Origin: Pseudomonadota bacterium
GTDB lineage: Bacteria > Pseudomonadota > Alphaproteobacteria > Caulobacterales > Hyphomonadaceae
Assembly: GCA_039817885.1 (NCBI GenBank)
Contig: JBCBUY010000003.1
Location: forward strand, 8,465 to 40,464
Length of the DNA: 32,000 bases
Direction of reading: 5' to 3'
The notes beneath the pieces were generated by a model. It worked only from the letters and a program-made list of their open reading frames with translations, had not been told where the DNA came from and made no database searches. Both the position numbers and the translations under genes were made by a program. Positions 10,060-31,898 of the stretch are shown piece by piece; position 1 is the first letter of the stretch, and every line of letters starts with the position of its first letter.

Positions 10060-10313
10060 TCTTTTTTGTTGGACGGCGACTGCCTGAGCGGTCGCGAAAT
10101 CGTGCCGGTGCGGGATTCTGACCGATTTCACTCAAAATCGGCCTCGAATGCACCAATCCGGCACAGCTTTGCCAAAAAACTACAAACGCCTCGCGCCAAG
10201 ACATGTCGAATTTTCATCAAAACTGATCGATTGCCCTGAGCCTCGCCTTAAGCCGCGTCCTGTAATGTCCACTGCACGAGGGACAGAATACCCTTGCTTA
10301 TGAGGTGGACAAA

Positions 10314-10592
10314 ATGAGTGAGCAGAATGCTTTCATAATGAGTGTTTCGGGGCCAAATGGGCGTCCCCTGACACTGGAAGACCTTCCCGCACCCGGCACC
10401 AAGCGTTGGGTGACTCGCCGCAAGGCAGAAGTCGTCGCGGCTGTTAAGGGTGGGCTTCTTTCCCAAGAAGATGCGTGTGATCGCTACGGGCTGTCGGATG
10501 AAGAATTCTCCGGTTGGGTCCGGCTCTACACAAATCACGGCGCCAAAGGCCTTCGCGCGACCCGTTTGCAGCAATATCGCCGCGCCCAGTAA
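10314..10592 (+). CDS. sciP: SciP-like small CtrA inhibitory protein (DUF1153)
   Basis: GPNGRPLTLEDLPAPGTKRWVTRRKAEVVAAVKGGLLSQEDACDRYGLSDEEFSGWV...GLRATRLQQYR closely matches Caulobacter SciP as I recall it. GAGG RBS 8 nt before ATG 10314; GTG 10305 is the alternative start. Confidence 0.85.
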   Translation: MSEQNAFIMSVSGPNGRPLTLEDLPAPGTKRWVTRRKAEVVAAVKGGLLSQEDACDRYGLSDEEFSGWVRLYTNHGAKGLRATRLQQYRRAQ

Positions 10593-10610: not shown

Positions 10611-10626
10611 TTAAAGCCGCGTTTAC
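10611..10626 (+). promoter_or_regulatory. Near-consensus CtrA-type box TTAA-N7-TTTAC
   Basis: TTAAAGCCGCGTTTAC is one mismatch from TTAA-N7-TTAAC. It lies in the sciP/mini-fliF intergenic region, upstream of the flagellar-type operon. Confidence 0.3.
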
Positions 10627-10651
10627 GACGCTGGGCTTAGAACTCTAGGTC

Positions 10652-10674
10652 ATGATCAGACGGATTCTGATCAT
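10652..10674. repeat. Perfect 9-bp inverted repeat ATGATCAGA-N5-TCTGATCAT
   Basis: Read directly from the sequence. It ends 4 nt upstream of the GGGAG RBS of the 10693 gene, and the loop contains GATTC (GANTC). Its function (operator or RNA hairpin) is unknown. Confidence 0.6.
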
Positions 10675-10692
10675 TACCGGGAGTTCTAAACC

Positions 10693-11319
10693 GTGATTGC
10701 ATCAGCAAACAGAAGCGATACGGCCTTCAGCTGGATGACCGGCGCGTTGTTCGTATTGGCAGTTGGTGCTCTTTTTCTTCGCTTTGCGACAAACGATTCC
10801 GCCCAATATCAGCACACTCCATCGTCTCCTTATACGGCTCTGGCGGAAACCTTTGTCGGGGCGGGCAATGTGCGCGTCGGCGATACGGGATCGGGCGACA
10901 TTATTGTTCTTCTGAACACCGATCGCCAGGCTGGGCGGAATGACCCGGCTATCACCCAAGATATAACGGATATGATCGAGGCTATGGCCCCTGGCCGCTC
11001 TGTAACGATCAAAGACGCCCCTTTTTCAAGGACGTCTGCCATATCCTCCGAACCCATCTTCATTCTTGAAATATTGGCACTTATTCTGATGTCCGGTATT
11101 TCCGGCTGGCTGTTCATCGCCCTTCAGAGACGCCGCCAAATGGTCCCGGCGGACGATCCGGTTCCAGCGAACGATATCGTGCCGCGCCCTTCTGCCCTCG
11201 TGACAGCCTTGGCGAAGCCTGCTTCACCCATCGATAAAGCCGCTGATTTTGCTGAGCGCCAACCCGCGCGGACAGCAGATATCATTACGGGGTGGCTGAG
11301 TGATGAGGACAAACGCTGA
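10693..11319 (+). CDS. Miniature FliF-like protein (208 aa; 2 TM, single RBM3-like core, FliG-binding C-terminus)
   Basis: GTG start with GGGAG 9 nt upstream and an in-frame TAA two codons before it. TM1 is about residues 13-32 and TM2 about 121-144. FliF-like segments: VGAGNVRV, GDIIVLLN, RSVTIKDAPFS just before TM2, and the C-terminal ADIITGWLSDEDKR. Its stop overlaps the fliG ATG (TGATG). Confidence 0.7.
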   Translation: MIASANRSDTAFSWMTGALFVLAVGALFLRFATNDSAQYQHTPSSPYTALAETFVGAGNVRVGDTGSGDIIVLLNTDRQAGRNDPAITQDITDMIEAMAPGRSVTIKDAPFSRTSAISSEPIFILEILALILMSGISGWLFIALQRRRQMVPADDPVPANDIVPRPSALVTALAKPASPIDKAADFAERQPARTADIITGWLSDEDKR

Positions 11320-12239
11320 TGGGACTGCCAGCAACGGCAAACAAGGCAACCGCTGACGGCATATTGCGGTCAGCGCGACTTTTACGTGCCCTTGGTCCAC
11401 GCGCTGCTGAGGTGTGGGCCGAATTGCCGCCTCAAGATGCCGAGCGTATCCATCACGTGCTCGAAACCCTGCCCGAGAATGCGGCTGACGAGGCGCACGC
11501 CGTAAATGCGTTGCTGGATGAGCTTGAGACCGGCCGTGCCCCCAGCGATGCCGGGTCAATCTGGCGAAAACTGGCAACAGTGTCTCGCGAGCAACTCCTG
11601 TCTTTGTTGAAAGATGAACACCCGCAGGTCGTCGCGCTTATCCTCGGCCGGTTAACGCCAACGCAATCTGCTGACATTGTTCGTCATCTTCCGTCTCTTG
11701 TGGCCATAGATGTCCTGCAAAGGATGCTGCATATGAATCCTCCGCACGGTGTGGCCATGGCAGCTATCGAACAGGCTTTGGAAGAGCGTCTCGAGCGGTT
11801 CGATGACCGGATCGAAATGCGTGAGACCAGTCTGGCGCGCATATTTGATGAATTGGACCCGGAGGCGAGTAAGACGCTCCTGTCCGCCCTCCAAACGGCA
11901 GAACCCGCTGCCGGCCGCCGTATTCAAACTTTGATGTTTGGTTTCGAAGAGCTCGTAACGCTGCCGGCTGCGGGTATTCAAACGCTTTTGTCACGGCTCG
12001 ACCGTAGAACCCTGACCCTGGCCATGGTTGGTGCAGATGATGGCGTTGCGACGGCGCTCTTCCAAAACATGACGAGCAGAGCGAGAGATGTCCTGAAAGA
12101 GGAGATCGCCGCTCTTGGTGAGATCCATGCGGCAGCAGCCGATGCCGCACGTGCAGATATGACCCGGCTTGCACGCACTTTGATTGCCAGCGGCGATATC
12201 CTCCCCTCCGCATCAGGAACGGAGGATCTCGTAGAATGA
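11319..12239 (+). CDS. fliG: Flagellar motor switch protein FliG (short, 306 aa)
   Basis: EHPQ motif (DEHPQVVALILGRL) and C-terminal domain motifs (LMFGFEELVTL, LAMVGADDGVATALFQNMTSRARDVLKEEI). Start and stop are both coupled to neighbouring genes. Confidence 0.88.
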   Translation: MGLPATANKATADGILRSARLLRALGPRAAEVWAELPPQDAERIHHVLETLPENAADEAHAVNALLDELETGRAPSDAGSIWRKLATVSREQLLSLLKDEHPQVVALILGRLTPTQSADIVRHLPSLVAIDVLQRMLHMNPPHGVAMAAIEQALEERLERFDDRIEMRETSLARIFDELDPEASKTLLSALQTAEPAAGRRIQTLMFGFEELVTLPAAGIQTLLSRLDRRTLTLAMVGADDGVATALFQNMTSRARDVLKEEIAALGEIHAAAADAARADMTRLARTLIASGDILPSASGTEDLVE

Positions 12240-12628
12240 CCGGACGCAGCATCCAATCCCTCAGAGCGTTTCCATTTTCTCCTGAATTCGAGCCGCCAGG
12301 CACTGCGATTCCGCGTCCCGAGGCTCGCGGTGAGATGGTCTCGCTGCCGGTCGACGAACTGTCCGTTCTGCTAGAGCATGCGCGACAAGAGACGGCTCAA
12401 CTTGTTCACAAAGACTGCGACAAAACTCTGGAAAGACTACAAGAGACCACAATCGGCTTGCAGAAAGCTCTGCAATATATGCTTGAGCTTGCGGACCATC
12501 TCGACCGGGTAAAAATGGAAACCGATGATCGCAGCCGTGCCAGAGCTCTGATGGCCTCCGCTTGTCAGACGATTATCGACGGGCAAGGCGATTTGTTTGC
12601 ATCCTTGCCCGCATCGACGGATCGTTAA
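12236..12628 (+). CDS. FliH/FlbE-position protein, function unverified
   Basis: 130-aa ORF with an ATGA overlap onto fliG. It occupies the slot between fliG and fliN that flbE/fliH holds in Caulobacter-type operons. It has predicted helical segments but no motif I can recognise by eye. Confidence 0.5.
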   Translation: MTGRSIQSLRAFPFSPEFEPPGTAIPRPEARGEMVSLPVDELSVLLEHARQETAQLVHKDCDKTLERLQETTIGLQKALQYMLELADHLDRVKMETDDRSRARALMASACQTIIDGQGDLFASLPASTDR

Positions 12629-12652: not shown

Positions 12653-12919
12653 ATGAGCGTGCCAGAAAACCCTGCCCTTGCTAAAAGACTGATGGACGTA
12701 CCTGTTCAGGTCGACGTGGTCCTCGGAGAGGCACGAATGGCGATTGAAGACCTTCAATCCATGGCCTCGGGAGATATTGTTGCCCTGGAACGCCGCGCGA
12801 ACGAGCCGGTCGACATTTACGTTTCGGACCGGCTTATGGCGCGCGGCAAACTGGTCATCGCGAACGGCGAACTCGGCGTGACGCTAACTGAAATTATTGA
12901 CGCACCCGCGACAATCTAG
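12653..12919 (+). CDS. fliN: Flagellar motor switch protein FliN (SpoA domain only, 88 aa)
   Basis: SpoA/FliN core VPVQVDVVLGEARMAIEDLQSMASGDIVALERRANEPVDIYVSDRLMARGKLVIANGELGVTLTEII. Confidence 0.88.
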   Translation: MSVPENPALAKRLMDVPVQVDVVLGEARMAIEDLQSMASGDIVALERRANEPVDIYVSDRLMARGKLVIANGELGVTLTEIIDAPATI

Positions 12920-12924
12920 GTTCG

Positions 12925-15027
12925 CTACCAAACCTGAATGCGGTGATCGGGCGAGAGCCATAATGGATCATCTTCCGTGATGTCGAAGGCGGCGTACCAA
13001 CCGTCGACATGGGGCAGTATTCCGTTGACGCGTACCGATGGAGGGCTGTGCGGGTCGGAATAGGCAAAGTCGATGTTCACCGTCGGAAGGCGTTTTGCGC
13101 GGCGCTTCTGCGCATAGCTGATAAAGAATGCCTGGGCGTCATCCTTGGACAGCGTATCGGTTCCACCGGCCGCCCTGGCGAGTTCCAGCGCCCGAAATGC
13201 TATTTCCACACCCGCCAAATCGCTCAGGTTTTCTCCAAGCGTCAGGTCTGTATTCAGCGGAATGCCAGGGACGGCGTCAAACCGAGATAAGTGGTCTGAA
13301 AGTCTGGCCCCTTTGGCATCGAAGCGTGCTTTGTCGTCCTCGTCCCACCAATTCGAGATCTTTCCGCTCGGACCTCGCTTGGCCCCTTGGTCATCAAAAG
13401 CATGGCCGAGTTCATGGCCAATCGTCGTGCCCACCGCACCAAAGTTCACCGCCATGCTGGCCGATGGATTGTAATATGGCGGCTGAAGATATGCGGCCGG
13501 AATAACAATCGCGTTCAAGGTCGGCAGATAATAGGCCCCAACGCTTATGGGTGAGAAGAATATGTCGCTTATGCGTGTCTCGGAGTTCGCCGCCGCCTCG
13601 ATTGGATCTTCCGCCGGCATTTGAAGCCTCGACAATGCCGACCGGTGCCGCAGCTGCTGACGCGAATAAGCGTTGTAAAATGGACTTCCGCGTACTGGAA
13701 CAAATTGCTCGAAATTGTTCCAGCCAGGCGGTTCGCCGACGACCACCTGGATGGCATCGAGCTTCTCAATCGCTCTTTGACGCGTATCATCGCTGAGCCA
13801 ATTGGCATTTTCGATCCGCTCCCGATAGGCCAACAATGTCCAGTCGACGATTTTCTCGACCTCGTGGACGACGCTGTCGCTCAAATACCGCTCGACATAG
13901 GCTTGCCCCACCGGATCGGGCAGCAAATCAGTTGCTACCCGCCGGGCGCGCTGGCGTCTTGTCGGCAAGGCAGGCTCAACGCCGAGGCGGGCTGAGTCAA
14001 ACCGATGGACAATGCGCGCCGTTAGTTCATCAAGATAGGGGCCATAGGTCAGGCTAAACCGCAGGGTCAGATAATCCCGCCAGACGTCGACAGGTGTCGC
14101 GTTAAATGCGGCGATGAGACCCGGCAGCTCCTCTGAAACCCGAACCTGAATGATCGTATCTTCCGTGACACCTCTCGCCGCCAGAAAACGTCGCCAGGGG
14201 AAACCCGGATAGGCGGTGCCGAGATCATCTACCCCAAATACCTGTTCTGCACTGACGGGCTGTCGCCGGGATACCGCGTCGGGATAGAGGGCGGCCAATC
14301 GGCGTTCAAGATCGAGAACCGCGGCCACGCGTTCGGCGGTGTCAGAGCTCCAATCGACACGTTGGAGCAAGCGCTTTAGCTGGGCCTGCGCTCTCTCAAC
14401 TTGGTCGAGCGCCATGGGATCTGAGCGGAGATAGAGCGAGCGTGACTGTAGCAGCAGGTCGGCGGGTTCGATCGAGGCGACGTAGCCCTGCCCTTCTATT
14501 GGGTCCAATCTCAGCGTGATGCTGATCAGTCCGCCGGCATCGAGATTGTAACTGCCGAGTAGGGATGCGACATGGTCGTGGGTCTCAGCGCCCTCGATCA
14601 GCGACAGGAACGGCCCGACTGGCCTTAAGCCAACTTGTCGCCTGCTATTGTGATCAATGTGATTGCGGAAGATCGCAAGGAACTTCGCCTCATTGCTATC
14701 GGACGGCCACCGCGAGCGCCGGATCCTGCGAACGATCTCTTCTGCGCGTTCATCGGTCCGGCTCTTTGCCGTTTCGAGTGCACCGGCCTGCCATTTGCCT
14801 TTCTCAATAGACGTGGTGTCGTACCATGTCCCGTTCGCATGTCTGAAGAAATCGACACCGGGAGGTGTGTCGTGGTCCATGCCGGCCCAATCGATCCCGT
14901 GCAGGGCGCTTGCTTTTTGCGGTGCATCCAGCTGACGCGATGATCCGTCAAAGGACTCATCTGCGGCCGAGTTTGCCATCGCCATGACAAGCATGGCCGA
15001 GATCAGCCCTGCAAGTCGAGAAGTCAT
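12925..15027 (-). CDS. M13 family zinc metallopeptidase (PepO / endothelin-converting-enzyme-like), secreted
   Basis: HExxH (TIGHELGHAFDD), downstream GENLSDLAG motif, C-terminal ...RIQVW, and an N-terminal signal peptide MTSRLAGLISAMLVMAMANSAA. 700 aa. Confidence 0.92.
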   Translation of the reverse strand: MTSRLAGLISAMLVMAMANSAADESFDGSSRQLDAPQKASALHGIDWAGMDHDTPPGVDFFRHANGTWYDTTSIEKGKWQAGALETAKSRTDERAEEIVRRIRRSRWPSDSNEAKFLAIFRNHIDHNSRRQVGLRPVGPFLSLIEGAETHDHVASLLGSYNLDAGGLISITLRLDPIEGQGYVASIEPADLLLQSRSLYLRSDPMALDQVERAQAQLKRLLQRVDWSSDTAERVAAVLDLERRLAALYPDAVSRRQPVSAEQVFGVDDLGTAYPGFPWRRFLAARGVTEDTIIQVRVSEELPGLIAAFNATPVDVWRDYLTLRFSLTYGPYLDELTARIVHRFDSARLGVEPALPTRRQRARRVATDLLPDPVGQAYVERYLSDSVVHEVEKIVDWTLLAYRERIENANWLSDDTRQRAIEKLDAIQVVVGEPPGWNNFEQFVPVRGSPFYNAYSRQQLRHRSALSRLQMPAEDPIEAAANSETRISDIFFSPISVGAYYLPTLNAIVIPAAYLQPPYYNPSASMAVNFGAVGTTIGHELGHAFDDQGAKRGPSGKISNWWDEDDKARFDAKGARLSDHLSRFDAVPGIPLNTDLTLGENLSDLAGVEIAFRALELARAAGGTDTLSKDDAQAFFISYAQKRRAKRLPTVNIDFAYSDPHSPPSVRVNGILPHVDGWYAAFDITEDDPLWLSPDHRIQVW

Positions 15028-15156: not shown

Positions 15157-15213
15157 TTAACCTTTCCTAAAGTGTGGTCTCTTAACGTTTGAATGGTTAA
15201 CAGCTCGCCTTAA
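15157..15213 (+). promoter_or_regulatory. Cluster of TTAA(C) CtrA-type half-sites upstream of ctrA
   Basis: GTTAACctttccTAAAG (TTAA-N7-TAAA), then TTAAC at 15182, GTTAAC at 15196 and TTAAA at 15210, all within 80 bp of the ctrA ATG. Only the first pair has canonical 11-bp phasing. Confidence 0.3.
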
Positions 15214-15235
15214 AGGAAACGGTTAGGAGAGGAAC

Positions 15236-15937
15236 ATGCGCGTCCTTCTGATTGAAGACGATACCGCCGTAGCACGCAGCATAGAACTTATGCTCAAGGC
15301 GGCAGGTTTCAATATTTACACGACAGACCTCGGAGAAGAGGGCGTCGATCTGGGGAAAGTCTACGAGTACGACATCATCATCCTCGACCTCTCATTGCCA
15401 GATATCTCAGGCTATGACGTCCTGAAACAGCTTCGAATGGCCCGGATCAACACGCCTGTTTTGATCCTTTCCGGGAACCCGGATATCGAAGCGAAGGTTA
15501 AGACGCTGGGCTACGGCGCTGACGACTATCTCACCAAACCCTTTAACAAGGACGAGCTGATCGCCCGTATTACGGCAATTGTTCGGCGCTCCAAAGGGCA
15601 TGCGGAAAGCGTCATCCGCACGGGCGATATCCTTGTTAATCTTGATGCCAAAACAGTGGAAGTTGACAATGACCGCGTCCACCTGACCGGCAAGGAATAT
15701 CAGATGTTTGAGCTTCTTTCCTTGCGAAAGGGCACGACGCTGACAAAAGAAATGTTCCTCAACCACCTCTATGGCGGCATGGACGAGCCTGAACTCAAGA
15801 TCATCGATGTCTTCATCTGCAAACTGCGCAAAAAGCTCGCGCAGGCGACAGGTGGTGAACACCATATCGAAACGGTATGGGGCCGTGGATACGTACTACG
15901 CGATCCTAAGCCGAAGAAGGAAGCGCAAGCCGCATAG
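15236..15937 (+). CDS. ctrA: Cell-cycle response regulator CtrA (OmpR family)
   Basis: Near-identical over long stretches to Caulobacter CtrA as I recall it: MRVLLIEDD..., receiver Asp in [83 protein letters not shown]. Confidence 0.97.
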
Positions 15938-16053: not shown

Positions 16054-16749
16054 TTAGTCGATCGCTGTCTCAGACACGGAGTCGTCGGCTGGAGCGACAA
16101 CATCTTCTTTTGCTTCTGACTCCGCTGCTGCTCGTCCCCGCGACAGTGTCTTCATAACGCCGTCGTCTTGATCTACGGCTTCGGCCGCTGGCTCGGCGTC
16201 TACAGGCTTCTTCCGTGGGCGGCGCGTGCGAGGTTTAGGCGGATCTGCCGGCGCCTCCTCAGCTTTTGCGTCTGACGTCTCTTCAGCGGCCTCTGTATCA
16301 GCCGACGTTTCCGCGTTGACCTCAGCAGTGGACTGATCATCGCGCTTCCGACGACGGCCCCGACCGCGGGTTTGACGTCCATCGCCGCCATCCTCGGCCG
16401 CGGTTTCTGTGCTTGCTGTATTCGTGTCAGCTGCTGGCCCATCTGCGGCTGCATCCGCCGCAGCACCTTCTTCGGCCGCACCTTGTTGACGCTGATCATC
16501 GCGCGGCTTGTCTTTCGGCTGCATGCCGGCCAAGACGCGGGAGTAATGCTCTGCATGCTGCAGATAGTTCTCTGCGCTGACCCTGTCGCCGGACGACTGG
16601 GCATCCCGCGCATATTGCTGGTACTTATCGAGAATTTGTTGCGCCGACCCACGGATTTTCACGTCGGGGCCGTTGCTCTCGAAATGACGGTTGGGATTGT
16701 TGTTATTTCCGCCGCCCGATCGGCGACCGCGTCCGCGTTGGCGCTTCAT
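16054..16749 (-). CDS. DUF4167 domain protein
   Basis: N-terminal RGRGRRSGGGNNNNPNRHFESNGPDVKIRGSAQQILDKYQQYARDA...AENYLQHAEHY matches DUF4167 as I recall it. The C-terminus is Ala/Asp/Glu-rich and low-complexity. It lies downstream of prmC. Confidence 0.8.
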   Translation of the reverse strand: MKRQRGRGRRSGGGNNNNPNRHFESNGPDVKIRGSAQQILDKYQQYARDAQSSGDRVSAENYLQHAEHYSRVLAGMQPKDKPRDDQRQQGAAEEGAAADAAADGPAADTNTASTETAAEDGGDGRQTRGRGRRRKRDDQSTAEVNAETSADTEAAEETSDAKAEEAPADPPKPRTRRPRKKPVDAEPAAEAVDQDDGVMKTLSRGRAAAESEAKEDVVAPADDSVSETAID

Positions 16750-19427: not shown

Positions 19428-19919
19428 CTAATCGCCGAGAACGTTCACAGACGGCAGACGGTGATAGGCAAACAAACCAAGTATGAAGCCTGGAAGCTCC
19501 AGCAGGGCAATCACCGCTACCTGCAACAGCAGCAAACCCCGAAGTACGCTGGTCGCCATCCAGTCCTGGGGCAAAGCTGTCAATGTCCCCCAAACGCAGG
19601 CCGCTGTCGCTGCAAACCCGCCAAGCGCCATCAGCAAGAATTGCGCTTTGGAGTTCTCGTTCTTGTCGAACCCGAACAGATAGACACTGGCCAATCGCTC
19701 CGGCACGCGGAATTTGGCACCGGCCATGGTTCCGACAATCAGGTGCCCCCATTCATGCAGGAGCCAGGCGCACACGCCAGCCGACAGGCCCAGACCCGCA
19801 CCCGCCATTTCGGCACTTATTCCGTCGCCCGCGCTTAGTTGGCCCGCAAACAGCCACGCTATGATCGTCACGGCCACAATAACGGCATCGCGTGCCGCAA
19901 ATTGACTGAACGCTCGCAT
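19428..19919 (-). CDS. Small polytopic membrane protein with an HExxH motif (putative metalloprotease-like)
   Basis: 163 aa, ATG start with a GAGG RBS, about 5 hydrophobic helices. HEWGH sits at the end of a helix (VCAWLLHEWGHLIVG). Confidence 0.55.
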   Translation of the reverse strand: MRAFSQFAARDAVIVAVTIIAWLFAGQLSAGDGISAEMAGAGLGLSAGVCAWLLHEWGHLIVGTMAGAKFRVPERLASVYLFGFDKNENSKAQFLLMALGGFAATAACVWGTLTALPQDWMATSVLRGLLLLQVAVIALLELPGFILGLFAYHRLPSVNVLGD

Positions 19920-22058: not shown

Positions 22059-24164
22059 CTACCAGATCCTGACCCGATCCTCGGGCGACAAATACAGATC
22101 GTCGCCCGGCTGGACGTCGAAAGCATCGTACCATTCATCCATATTGCGGACGATGCCATTGACCCGAAGCGCCATCGGGGCGTGGACTTGAGATAAGATC
22201 CGCTTTCGAAGACCCTGCTCTGTTCGTTTGTATCGCCGGGCTTGGGCGCGCCCCAGGAAGAAGCGCTGCGGGCCCGTAAAGCCTTCCAATATCTCCGGCT
22301 CTTCGCCATCGAGGGACAAGAGATATGCGTGATATGCCATTGTTACGCCGGCAAGATCACCGATGTTCTCTCCCAATGTCTGCCGGCCATTTACGTTCAA
22401 GCCAGGCAATGGCTCATACTGGTTGAATTGAGCGACCAGCCGGTCCCCCAAAGCATCGAACGCCGCACGGTCTTCGTCTGTCCACCAATTCTCAAGCCGA
22501 CCATCCGCGCCATATCGCGACCCCTGATCATCAAAGCCGTGGCCAATCTCATGACCAATTACAGTTCCGATCGCACCATAATTCAATGCGGGATCTGCAA
22601 GGGGATCGAACATGGGTGACTGTATGTACCCTGCGGGAATGAACGCCTCATTGCGGGTTCGGCTATAGGACGCATTCACCGTTTGCGGGTTTCGTGTCCA
22701 CTCCCCCTGTTCCACGGGCCGGCCCAGCTTCTGCCGATTGAATGCCCGATCGGCGGCGCGCAAGCGACGCACATTGCCGAAGAGGTCATAAGCGCTGATG
22801 TCTACGTTCTCATAATCACGCCAAACTTCCGGATATCCAATCTGCCCGGACATTGCATTGAGTTTCGCAAGTGCAGCTTGCTTGGTCTCGTCCGTCATCC
22901 AGGTGAGGTTTGAGATACGGTTCCTATAGGCCGCCTTCACATTCTCGAATATCTCCGTCATCTGACGTTTAGAGTCTTCAGCGAAGTATCGCTCAACATA
23001 CAGCTTGCCGATTTCCTGACCGAGACGATTGTCGACAAAACTGATGGCGCGCCATTGCCGCGCTCTCGGAATGGTCTGGCCGTGCAGCGTGCGCCGAAAG
23101 AACCCGAAACTTGGATCAGCGAATTTTCGCGGCATGTAGACCGCATTGGCTGCCACATAGTGGAACAGGAGATAATCTCGCCATTGGCTGACCGGTGTGC
23201 TCTCGAACAGTCTCGCCAATTCCGGGAATGCTGTTTTTTCGCGAACGAGAATGTGTGGTGCATCCGACAGGCCGTCTTCGTCCAGAAGCACCGCCCAGGG
23301 AAAGTCTGGTGCAAACGCGACCAGCTCGCGTTTTGACATCGGATTAAAGGTCAGTTCCGCGTTGCGACGGTCAGCCCGTGTCCAATGCTGTTCAGCAATT
23401 GCCCGCTCAAGCGCGACGACGGCCTCAGCGCGCACTCGGGCGTTCTGTTCTCCCAGAAGCGTCAGGATCGTCTCTATATGGCCGGTATAGTCTGACCGAA
23501 TGGATTCAAGGCGTCGGCTCTGCAGAAGATAATAGGTGCGGTCTGGCAATCCCAGTCGTCCATGGCCAATGCGAAGAACATGTTCCGTCGGGTTTTTTGG
23601 ATCGATCCCGACGCCCGCCTCGAACAGGCTTGCGATACCCAATTCAGGGTCCGCCATGGCGCGCGCAACATCCTCATGGGATTGAACTCGGCGCAAACGA
23701 TCAAGATGTTCTTCAAAGGGGGTAAGCGCAGCAATCTCGATCCGTGCCTCGTCCATAAAGCTCTTATAGAGATCTCTTATGCGCTGCTCTGGTGTGCCCC
23801 GTGCTGCGAAAGACGCATCGATATCTGTAATGATCTCAGCAAGCCGGTCCCGCGTGCGATTTCGCATATCGACGGAAAAGCCTGTCCCAGAACTATCGCT
23901 CGGGATCGTCGCCGAAGCGAGCCAGCCGCCATTTGCGAAGATAAAGAAATCGTCACCGGGGCGGGTCCGCTTATCGAAGGCATCGAGAGGATATCCCCAG
24001 GGCTCGATCAGCGGACCTTCTGGCGCAACATACGTCACCTCGGTTGTCTCAACTGGTTGTGGTCTCTCAGTTGTCTCCCCCCGTCCGCAACTTGCCAGAA
24101 GGATGACAACCGTACAGAGCAGGAGACTACTTGAAGACTTACGCACACCTAAACCCTGCTGCAA
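22059..24164 (-). CDS. M13 family zinc metallopeptidase (PepO-like), lipoprotein
   Basis: VIGHEIGHGFDD, GENIGDLAG, C-terminal ...RVRIW, and a lipobox LLASC. The track start at 24164 is TTG; GTG 24146 (MRKSSSSLLLC...) is an alternative. Confidence 0.92.
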   Translation of the reverse strand: MQQGLGVRKSSSSLLLCTVVILLASCGRGETTERPQPVETTEVTYVAPEGPLIEPWGYPLDAFDKRTRPGDDFFIFANGGWLASATIPSDSSGTGFSVDMRNRTRDRLAEIITDIDASFAARGTPEQRIRDLYKSFMDEARIEIAALTPFEEHLDRLRRVQSHEDVARAMADPELGIASLFEAGVGIDPKNPTEHVLRIGHGRLGLPDRTYYLLQSRRLESIRSDYTGHIETILTLLGEQNARVRAEAVVALERAIAEQHWTRADRRNAELTFNPMSKRELVAFAPDFPWAVLLDEDGLSDAPHILVREKTAFPELARLFESTPVSQWRDYLLFHYVAANAVYMPRKFADPSFGFFRRTLHGQTIPRARQWRAISFVDNRLGQEIGKLYVERYFAEDSKRQMTEIFENVKAAYRNRISNLTWMTDETKQAALAKLNAMSGQIGYPEVWRDYENVDISAYDLFGNVRRLRAADRAFNRQKLGRPVEQGEWTRNPQTVNASYSRTRNEAFIPAGYIQSPMFDPLADPALNYGAIGTVIGHEIGHGFDDQGSRYGADGRLENWWTDEDRAAFDALGDRLVAQFNQYEPLPGLNVNGRQTLGENIGDLAGVTMAYHAYLLSLDGEEPEILEGFTGPQRFFLGRAQARRYKRTEQGLRKRILSQVHAPMALRVNGIVRNMDEWYDAFDVQPGDDLYLSPEDRVRIW

Positions 24165-31412: not shown

Positions 31413-31898
31413 ATGATAGCCGTGCGTATCATGTTACTTGCGAGCCTTGGACTGATCTTCTCTGGCTCCGCTTGGTCCCAAATCGATGTGGAGTTTGACG
31501 AGGATAACCGCCAACACGTCTCTCTTGTCCTAGGCGGCACCTCCATTCCTTCGGCAGATGAAACGGCGTTCACCATAGGGATCGACTACGAGTATCGCCT
31601 TAACCGTTTGATTGGCGTCGGCGCTGTTGTCGAGCATGCGGTCGGCGATATTGATGCGACGACCCTGCTCGCGGTTGCCGACATCCATATCTGGAAAGGG
31701 CTCGCTATTCAGGCCGGCCCCGGGGTGGAATTTGCCGATGAGGGGGAGACCACTGAAACGTTCGCCATCGGCCGCATAGGTGCCTTGTACGAAGTTGAGA
31801 TCGAAGAGCGATTCACCATCGCGCCTCAAGTTCATTACGATATCTCGAGCGGACCGGACGCGGTCGTGTTCGGTTTGGCACTTGGCGTTGCATTTTAG
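31413..31898 (+). CDS. Small outer-membrane beta-barrel-like protein, function unknown
   Basis: Signal peptide (MIAVRIMLLASLGLIFSGSAWSQ), alternating hydrophobic beta-strand pattern, and a C-terminal ...GLALGVAF ending in Phe. AAGGA RBS. Confidence 0.6.
   Translation: MIAVRIMLLASLGLIFSGSAWSQIDVEFDEDNRQHVSLVLGGTSIPSADETAFTIGIDYEYRLNRLIGVGAVVEHAVGDIDATTLLAVADIHIWKGLAIQAGPGVEFADEGETTETFAIGRIGALYEVEIEERFTIAPQVHYDISSGPDAVVFGLALGVAF

Follow-up and report, generated by a model that had tools for sequence, protein, structure and literature searches.

A predicted FliF-derived protein with one ring-building motif heads a shortened rotor gene cluster in Hyphomonadaceae

Introduction

What occupies the position of fliF when the space between its neighbors is too short for a normal fliF gene? 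This question is raised by a 32,000-nucleotide stretch of contig JBCBUY010000003.1 (positions 8,465 to 40,464, hereafter the window) from an alphaproteobacterium of the family Hyphomonadaceae (GenBank assembly GCA_039817885.1), in which the stop codon of sciP (10592) and the start codon of fliG are separated by only 726 bp. A sequence-only reading of the window had placed in this gap an intact open reading frame (ORF) at 10693 to 11319 that overlaps fliG, and had proposed that it encodes a FliF reduced to a single ring-building motif (RBM). We here consider whether this protein, termed mini-FliF, is derived from FliF, whether its gene is maintained, and what its operon might build.

Results

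Position and coding signals of mini-fliF

An ORF and coordinate check reproduced the reading frame, the length of the gap, and the overlap with fliG.

10693..11319, + strand: mini-fliF, 208 codons (208 residues), GTG start; FliF paralog without RBM1, RBM2, and the beta-collar

A Shine-Dalgarno (SD) sequence, GGGAG at positions 10679 to 10683, is located 9 nt 5′ of the GTG start codon, and the TGA stop codon (11317 to 11319) shares its A with the ATG start codon of fliG (11319 to 11321). Those mini-FliF members that bear a name at NCBI are called "hypothetical protein," the partner FliG is called "FliG C-terminal domain-containing protein," and the automatic IMG pipeline tagged two mini-FliF members as FliF/YscJ.

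Mini-FliF belongs to a family of short proteins

An exhaustive search over 1.84 billion cluster representatives (50% clustering) found 35 relatives of mini-FliF, all of which have 194 to 240 residues and align end to end. Length and topology are kept over at least 35 clusters, down to ~25% identity. A word-indexed protein search had returned three proteins with the ORF as the query and six with the 36-member alignment, and it was the exhaustive search that exposed the family. The alignment of the window protein with its 35 relatives served as the family profile. In this alignment G56, P191, and W201 are invariant, and E52, R61, L73, F111, E126, A183, A187, and A195 are nearly so. Judged by these sequences, mini-FliF is a member of a sizeable and apparently unstudied family and not a one-off. 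When genome contigs were scanned with the closest members, aligned as a set of 10 sequences, only three metagenome-assembled genomes (MAGs) were returned.

The gene order sciP, mini-FliF, FliG (295 to 316 residues), a protein here called X (121 to 147 residues), and FliN (88 to 94 residues) was found in eight independent loci, with mini-FliF identities to the window protein of 45% to 52% in three loci, 33% in locus L008, and 27% in locus L005. Three loci from Hyphomonas MAGs (L009 to L011) also bear this module.

Profile comparisons link mini-FliF to the third ring-building motif of FliF

The sequence-only reading had expected matches to FliF models; these were obtained with the family profile and not with the single sequence. 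For PF01514 (YscJ_FliF, covering RBM1 and RBM2) there was no match at E values up to 10 for the window protein, nor was there one among the 36 members. PF08345 (YscJ_FliF_C) gave subthreshold matches in 5 of the 36 members (best E value, 2.7e-4) and none for the window protein, which also remained below the curated thresholds of both PF08345 and the NCBIfam fliF model. When the 36-sequence profile was compared with the PDB, the top four matches were four distinct FliF sequences (E values of 0.022 to 0.3).

The pairing obtained with HMMER was colinear, with mini-FliF positions 42 to 71 aligning to Salmonella FliF residues 240 to 269 and positions 77 to 206 to FliF residues 396 to 558. The VGxGNVR motif of mini-FliF falls on FliF 240 to 269, IIVLLN aligns with rlSVaVvvN, the helix preceding the last strand is aligned as well, the PFS/PFA motif ahead of the second transmembrane (TM) segment is found in both proteins, and DPxxxAxIIxxWL at the C terminus of mini-FliF aligns with the extreme C terminus of FliF. 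All five segment pairings with Salmonella FliF that had been proposed by eye were thus recovered by HMMER with the family profile and by hhalign.

For the hhalign comparisons we aligned 11 FliF sequences, of which two belong to Caulobacter-type loci and nine were taken from records of plasmids or chromids. At full length, mini-FliF residues 58 to 207 (profile columns 62 to 208) matched FliF columns 343 to 558 with a probability of 96.3% and an E value of 1.5e-9, and a second colinear match placed residues 45 to 69 on FliF columns 246 to 270, the entry into RBM3. The cytoplasmic tail alone matched the extreme C terminus of FliF (probability, 94%; E value, 1.3e-7). The periplasmic domain alone matched FliF columns 246 to 270 (E value, 5.5e-4) and 345 to 416 (E value, 9.6e-4), which are the two halves of RBM3 flanking the beta-collar. 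The RBM2 region reached only E values of 0.03 to 0.11, and the TM segments alone gave no significant match to the FliF alignment. The two RBM3 halves, which are parted by columns 271 to 342 in the FliF alignment, are contiguous in mini-FliF (residues ~45 to 69 and 58 to 112), i.e., the beta-collar is missing. In a specificity control, the family hidden Markov model (HMM) was run against all six-frame ORFs of the fetched loci and recovered only the mini-FliFs (E values of 1e-49 to 1e-67) and canonical FliFs (7 of 11; E values of 2e-6 to 2e-3).

On these alignments, mini-FliF is a FliF-derived protein that has kept TM1, the RBM3 core, TM2, and the FliG-binding tail and has lost RBM1, RBM2, and the beta-collar, the same losses that the sequence-only reading had named. 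We classify it as a new, highly reduced FliF variant and not as a FliF equivalog, because it fails the PF01514, PF08345, and NCBIfam models and lacks the beta-collar.

Predicted structure of mini-FliF

An AlphaFold monomer model calculated with the 36-sequence alignment had a predicted local distance difference test (pLDDT) score of 81.6. It contains a helix at residues 2 to 38, then helix 46 to 55, strands 60 to 64 and 70 to 75, helix 85 to 98, and strand 104 to 109, followed by a helix at 121 to 150 and helices at 179 to 189 and 191 to 207. The model agrees with the topology that had been claimed for the protein, which was TM1, ~88 periplasmic residues (33 to 120) with an alpha-beta-beta-alpha-beta fold, TM2, and a tail. 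The predicted elements, all on the + strand, are as follows.

10726..10785, + strand: TM1, approximately residues 12 to 31, hydrophobic stretch FSWMTGALFVLAVGALFLRF within AlphaFold helix 2 to 38
10828..11019, + strand: periplasmic alpha-beta-beta-alpha-beta domain, residues 46 to 109, pLDDT 78 to 94; RBM3 core with the beta-collar excised
11053..11127, + strand: TM2, approximately residues 121 to 145, then the basic stretch QRRRQ; AlphaFold helix 121 to 150; covered by the full-length hhalign match, where it pairs with TM2 of FliF
11227..11313, + strand: cytoplasmic helix-turn-helix tail, residues 179 to 207, motif AAxxAxxxPxxTAxIIxxWL, pLDDT 82 to 92

In the model, two TM helices (2 to 38 and 121 to 150) enclose one RBM-like periplasmic domain. 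TM2 contains, close to its periplasmic end, a glutamate (E126) that hardly varies over the 36-member family. In the tail, P191 and W201 are invariant and A195 is almost so, and this segment bears the C-terminal FliG-binding motif of FliF.

The short gene is under purifying selection

Between two relatives, dN/dS (the ratio of nonsynonymous to synonymous substitution rates) was 0.24 for mini-FliF, 0.14 for FliG, 0.24 for X, 0.04 for FliN, and 0 for sciP. The relatives have the same short form, and none of them carries a full-length fliF at the locus. Because of the low dN/dS values and the shared short form, the module is a maintained system under purifying selection and not one in decay, in line with the earlier claim of a maintained gene. 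The ORF might instead be decaying fliF debris or an unrelated two-TM protein that occupies this position by chance, which would fit the lack of a family match for the single sequence and its designation as a hypothetical protein at NCBI. Against this stand the length and topology kept in at least 35 clusters down to ~25% identity, the dN/dS value of 0.24, the translational coupling to fliG, and the specific profile match to FliF; the conservation and profile data effectively refute it.

The whole operon is shortened and colinear with fliF-fliG-flbE-fliN

Three genes follow mini-fliF on the same strand.

11319..12239, + strand: short FliG, 306 residues; Pfam FliG_M and FliG_C clear, FliG_N partial
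12236..12628, + strand: ORF X, 130 residues; positional counterpart of flbE/fliH, start overlapping the fliG stop (ATGA)
12653..12919, + strand: short FliN, 88 residues, SpoA domain only; PF01052 with an E value of 8e-23, TIGR02480 with 88 bits (above the cutoff of 84)

In the short FliG, FliG_N was matched only at profile positions 4 to 53 of 104, and TIGR00207 gave 123 bits against a cutoff of 227; this FliG is therefore assigned to a divergent subfamily and not to the equivalog. The short-FliG family comprises 43 members of 301 to 316 residues with at least 38% identity, and a clear gap separates it from canonical FliGs (357 to 360 residues), which are 30% to 33% identical. The 43 members lack ~45 residues from the N-domain and linker. 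Among them, conservation reaches at least 90% for the EHPQ...R motif, for the MFxF hinge, and, in the torque helix, for the Arg and for the acidic pair (here Glu-Glu).

An alignment of seven X homologs revealed an N-terminal FxFxxxF motif with invariant F12, F14, and F18 and a C terminus with an invariant Q.I.DGQGDLF sequence, neither of which matched a known family. The spacing from FxF to an "L..AR.E" helix is similar to that in FlbE-like proteins such as Marinovum FlbE. X had no Pfam match, its profile gave only coiled-coil noise against the PDB and Pfam, and BLASTP against an FlbE-like protein found nothing. The C-terminal domain is absent from X, which has 130 residues compared to 217 for the FlbE-like gene product. 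The DGQGDLF motif, which takes the place of the FliI-binding half of FlbE/FliH, may bind another partner.

The nearest canonical FliGs are encoded in operons consisting of fliF (543 to 569 residues), fliG (358 to 360), an FlbE-like gene (216 to 217), fliN (114 to 115), flbD, and flhA. The products of the module have 208, 306, 130, and 88 residues compared to ~550, 360, 217, and 114 in the Caulobacter-type operon. By gene order and lengths, the translationally coupled mini operon reproduces the class II operon of the Caulobacter type, fliF-fliG-flbE-fliN, colinearly and in shortened form. The genes flbD and flhA, which come next in the canonical operon, are absent after the module in the window.

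Hyphomonas neptunium carries a canonical set in addition

A second, full-length fliF was found in published supplementary tables for Hyphomonas neptunium (Leicht et al. 2020, PMC7200025). The motility island HNE_0239-0276 of this species contains fliL, fliF (HNE_0242), fliN (HNE_0244), fliP, fliG (HNE_0246), motAB, fliI, and rod genes. A separate locus consists of HNE_1390 (sciP), HNE_1391 ("hypothetical"), HNE_1392 ("putative FliG"), and HNE_1393 ("hypothetical"), and the neighboring HNE_1389 belongs to COG3173, the same neighbor as in L009 and L010 (PMC7200025). The 220-residue proteins at the position equivalent to HNE_1391 in Hyphomonas MAGs gave 165 to 174 bits (E value, ~1e-50) with the family HMM. 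Since a complete canonical flagellar system with its own fliF, fliG, and fliN is encoded elsewhere in the genome, the module in H. neptunium is a paralogous second set and not a degraded sole FliF. The proposal of an unusual architecture in the fliF slot therefore holds with respect to the identity of the protein but needs revision in its scope: mini-FliF is one member of a sizeable family, its whole operon is shortened, and in H. neptunium it belongs to a paralogous set.

The Caulobacter locus tags are CC_0903 for sciP and CC_0905 for fliF (homology tables, PMC7200025). From this locus-tag numbering, the linkage of the fliF operon to sciP appears ancestral, and it therefore need not imply function. 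These data bear on the idea that mini-FliF is the only FliF of the window organism and supports a working flagellum together with a separate SctJ-like protein that supplies RBM1 and RBM2. Such a split membrane/supramembrane (MS) ring would agree with the ancestral fliF position of the gene and with injectisomes, which divide their inner ring between two proteins (PMC4768692). We consider it very improbable, as the whole operon is shortened, including the C-terminal half of FliH, flbD and flhA are absent here, and there is no beta-collar to hold the rod. In addition, a full FliF is encoded elsewhere in H. neptunium, and no candidate partner gene was seen in any locus.

In the Hyphomonas MAGs the module is followed on its 3′ side by genes for an FlhF-like signal recognition particle-type GTPase (TIGR03499, 78 bits, below the cutoff) and a MinD/FlhG-like ATPase and by ctrA.

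L009, 11830-14535: FlhF-like, MinD/FlhG-like, ctrA block
L010, 13070-15720: FlhF-like, MinD/FlhG-like, ctrA block
L011, 5272-7985: FlhF-like, MinD/FlhG-like, ctrA block

In L010 and L011, fliN and the FlhF-like gene are separated by an acyltransferase gene. In the window, the FlhF-like and MinD-like genes are absent after fliN, and an M13 peptidase gene on the opposite strand is found instead.

The presence of both sets in H. neptunium is also the first point in favor of another explanation, in which the proteins of the module serve the normal motor as accessory or alternative subunits that insert into, cap, nucleate, or titrate the MS ring and cytoplasmic (C) ring, or act as a cell-cycle-timed assembly factor or brake. 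The short FliG retains the EHPQ...R motif (FliM contact) and the torque-helix charges (MotA contact), and as the module contains neither fliM nor motAB, only the canonical set could provide these partners. The FlhF-like and MinD/FlhG-like genes 3′ of the module in Hyphomonas MAGs would fit this explanation too, as would a CtrA-like box (see below) that ties the module to the flagellar and cell-cycle regulon. However, the four proteins are apparently co-shortened and encoded alongside their cognate partners, which suggests a self-contained complex, and short and canonical FliGs are only 30% to 33% identical. In MS-ring cryo-electron microscopy structures, the RBM3 beta-collar and RBM1/RBM2 make the FliF-FliF ring contacts, and mini-FliF lacks these parts. 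We regard a role as accessory subunits as unlikely, though it deserves consideration.

A CtrA-like box and a leader hairpin precede mini-fliF

The spacer between sciP and mini-fliF contains two elements.

10611..10626, + strand: CtrA-like box TTAAAGCCGCGTTTAC, TTAA-N7-TTTAC
10629..10695, + strand: leader hairpin; outer stem pairing the SD sequence (10679-10683) with 10637-10646, inner stem pairing 10652-10660 with 10666-10674 (perfect 9-bp inverted repeat)

TTAAA and TTTAC are invariant in eight of eight spacers (window, L001, L004, L005, L006, L008, L009, and L010), while the other spacer positions diverge. The CtrA consensus of H. neptunium is TTAA-N7-TTAAC (PMC7200025). The box is one mismatch away from it, and the departure, TTTAC for TTAAC, is itself conserved. 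An exact TTAA-N7-TTAA sequence does not occur in the window, and boxes with one mismatch are not enriched there (4 observed versus 3.6 expected), so that the case for the box rests on its positional conservation across loci. The TTAAAGCCGCGTTTAC box is a probable candidate promoter element of the operon. Among the other three one-mismatch boxes of the window is TTAACCTTTCCTAAA at 15157 to 15171, 65 nt 5′ of ctrA, a possible autoregulatory CtrA box.

The leader has a folding energy of -33.4 kcal/mol (z score, -6.0). A consensus structure of the four closest loci comprised 14 pairs, 6 of which are supported by compensatory changes. Distant loci, when folded singly, showed a similar fold in a different sequence, with the same layout of anti-SD, inner hairpin, and SD. 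The leader matched no Rfam family, and its covariance model did not reach the distant loci. The gene had been credited with a good ribosome-binding site. The GGGAG sequence at 9 nt from the start codon bears this out, but as the leader hairpin pairs the SD sequence, the site is probably regulated by the predicted SD sequestration. The element could also be an operator, since it is palindromic at the DNA level. Upstream, the region at 10060 to 10304, 5′ of sciP, contains long blocks shared by the window, L006, L001, and partly L005, namely, CCAATCCGGCACAGCTTTGCCAA and GACATATCGAATTTTCATCAAAACTGATCGAT and then CCTTAAGCCGC, and is probably the sciP promoter/regulatory region.

The regulatory signals raise the possibility of a polarity or cell-cycle signaling platform, i.e., a rotor-derived membrane scaffold that marks the pole or reports to CtrA/SciP and involves neither rotation nor a stator. 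The conserved box and the SD-sequestering leader would suit such a platform, as would the tight linkage to sciP in all loci, the proximity of ctrA in the window (15236-15937) and in the Hyphomonas MAGs, and the placement factors resembling FlhF and FlhG that adjoin the module in Hyphomonas. Moreover, HNE_1391-1393 are listed in one supplementary regulon table (file 17) of a study of DivJ, PleC, and DivK (PMC7200025). The conserved torque-helix Arg and acidic pair of FliG, however, are hard to explain without a stator-like partner, and the sciP linkage is ancestral, so that function need not follow from it. We judge a pure signaling platform to be distinctly unlikely.

Genomic setting

The following regulatory genes flank the module in the window.

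10305..10592, + strand: sciP (CtrA inhibitor), NF051866 with 125.4 bits (above the cutoff of 100), PF06627
15236..15937: ctrA, 233 residues, NF045991 with 411 bits, 2.3 kb 3′ of the module

sciP lies directly 5′ of the module in all eight independent loci. Outside the module and sciP, the window is of housekeeping character. Farther upstream are nusA, infB, rbfA, and mnmA, identified from their sizes and from synteny with the homologous locus L001, which had been annotated with Pfam. The downstream genes include prfA, prmC, two genes for M13 peptidases, and ctrA. The ctrA region (15157-15937) is a stretch of low G+C content (0.50). The two M13-family metallopeptidase paralogs, of ~700 residues each, are encoded on the minus strand at 12925-15027 and 22059-24164, less than 10 kb apart. 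A DUF4167 protein (16054-16749, minus strand) adjoins prmC and prfA, and two ORFs, one of 163 residues (19428-19919, minus strand) and one of 161 residues (31413-31898, plus strand), had no Pfam match.

Discussion

Our analysis favors, with some confidence, the reading that the FliF-derived mini-FliF heads a co-shortened paralogous rotor operon whose products build a C-ring-like membrane assembly without export. Most likely, mini-FliF would serve as a platform in the inner membrane, probably ring shaped, onto which a C-ring-like assembly docks in the absence of an export gate. According to this model, an N-terminal cytoplasmic stub would be followed by TM1, the RBM3 core without beta-collar, TM2, a linker of ~30 residues, and the two-helix FliG-binding tail. 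The single RBM would oligomerize mini-FliF into the platform, and the C-terminal helices would fold together with the shortened N-domain of FliG in the manner of the published complexes of FliF-C and FliG-N. The short FliG, with its FliM-contact motif and torque-helix charges, would then organize or recruit FliN, to which X would probably attach via its FliH-like FxF N terminus. This would yield a cytoplasmic assembly that resembles the C ring, and the module would be rotor-like or landmark-like rather than a flagellum.

In the established structure of FliF, the export gate lies inside the housing formed by RBM1 and RBM2, and the rod is held in the beta-collar. Because RBM1/RBM2, the beta-collar, flhA, flbD, and the FliI-binding half of FliH are missing, the mini assembly is predicted to be one that cannot export or carry an axial structure and would not form a secretion-competent basal body. 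The retention of the stator-facing charges and of EHPQR in the short FliG suggests continued contact with partners of the MotA and FliM kinds; in Hyphomonas, these could be supplied by the canonical set only.

Several results weigh against this reading. On its own, the window protein matched no Pfam or NCBIfam model, and a three-sequence mini-FliF profile had no match in the PDB. The hhalign matches of the periplasmic domain are each marginal when taken singly. A Foldseek search against the PDB gave no match with an E value below 1e-3; FliF RBM fragments (8wkq, 8z5x) and PrgK were listed beside unrelated folds, e.g., the C-terminal domain of MamM, and as the alpha-beta-beta-alpha-beta fold is generic, Foldseek does not discriminate. 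The FliG N-domain that is meant to receive the tail is itself truncated, so that docking could differ from the canonical mode. The match of X to the FlbE-like N terminus is weak (hhalign E value of 1.3e-3 over 46 columns). Finally, no fliM or motAB was found in any module locus, and no other flagellar genes were found within the window or in ~10 kb of additional downstream contig. A Hat-like inner-membrane structure (PMC9380563) was dropped as a candidate, as it occurs in many species without the module.

A bolder form of the C-ring-like model, which we put forward only tentatively and hold to be rather doubtful, is an autonomous envelope structure. It would consist of a small mini-FliF ring with a FliG/FliN cup, have no export gate, rod, or filament, and, given the stator-facing charges kept by FliG, could be turned by MotAB-type stators or sequester them. 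Such a structure would act as a free-running or signaling rotor under CtrA/SciP cell-cycle control beside the ordinary flagellum in Hyphomonadaceae and related marine alphaproteobacteria.

Mini-FliF can be compared with several known systems. With canonical FliF of the Salmonella/Caulobacter type (~540 to 570 residues; PF01514 and PF08345) it shares two TM segments that bracket a ring-building motif, the VGxGxVR entry, PF(A/S) ahead of TM2, the C-terminal DPxxxAxIIRxWL helices, and a gene position directly 5′ of and overlapping fliG, which by synteny is the Caulobacter-type, sciP-linked position. It differs by the absence of RBM1, RBM2, and the RBM3 beta-collar insertion of ~110 residues (208 versus ~550 residues in total), by scoring below the curated Pfam and NCBIfam thresholds, and by its coexistence with a true FliF in H. 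neptunium.

Of the described cases, the nearest to mini-FliF is the short FliF of Chlamydiaceae, a protein of ~330 residues with two RBMs (one of them RBM2-like), no SpoIIIAG-like domain, and a FliG-M-like fusion (Bergeron 2016, PMC4768692). Both proteins are naturally reduced, have two TM segments and a shortened RBM periplasmic region, and are found outside a complete flagellar context, but mini-FliF is shorter, has the RBM3 core only, and is accompanied by separate co-shortened FliG, FliN, and FliH-like partners. The single-RBM ring formers SctJ/PrgK, SctD, and SpoIIIAH/SpoIIIAG of related machines likewise have small TM-anchored alpha-beta-beta-alpha-beta periplasmic modules, which oligomerize into rings. 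They lack the FliG-binding motif of FliF and are not encoded with fliG, whereas the profile similarity of mini-FliF is specific to RBM3 of FliF. Duplicated rotor genes are known from the fla1 and fla2 sets of Rhodobacter sphaeroides and from FliG1 and FliG2 of Borrelia, which thus also have a second rotor set beside that of the known flagellum. Those paralogs are full length and part of complete flagella, whereas all members of the mini module are shortened and export and axial parts are absent. In full-text literature searched for short, second, or paralogous FliF, for nonflagellar FliG/FliF/FliN-like proteins, and for the HNE locus tags, we found no description of the module.

If the reading favored here is correct, mini-FliF would be the smallest natural FliF, consisting of one RBM and a FliG-binding tail. 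It would serve as a natural test of which FliF parts are enough to oligomerize in the membrane and to recruit the C ring, and of what is contributed by RBM1/RBM2 and the beta-collar. As the module is present in H. neptunium (HNE_1390-1393 and the next gene), a cultured, motile, and genetically tractable species, these predictions would be directly testable; cryo-electron tomography of this organism has reportedly been published already. A definition of the family would also mend the annotation as "hypothetical protein." More generally, the module would be a case in which rotor/switch genes have been kept, co-shortened, and selected apart from the export and axial parts, which would bear on exaptation, compare the origin of the injectisome.

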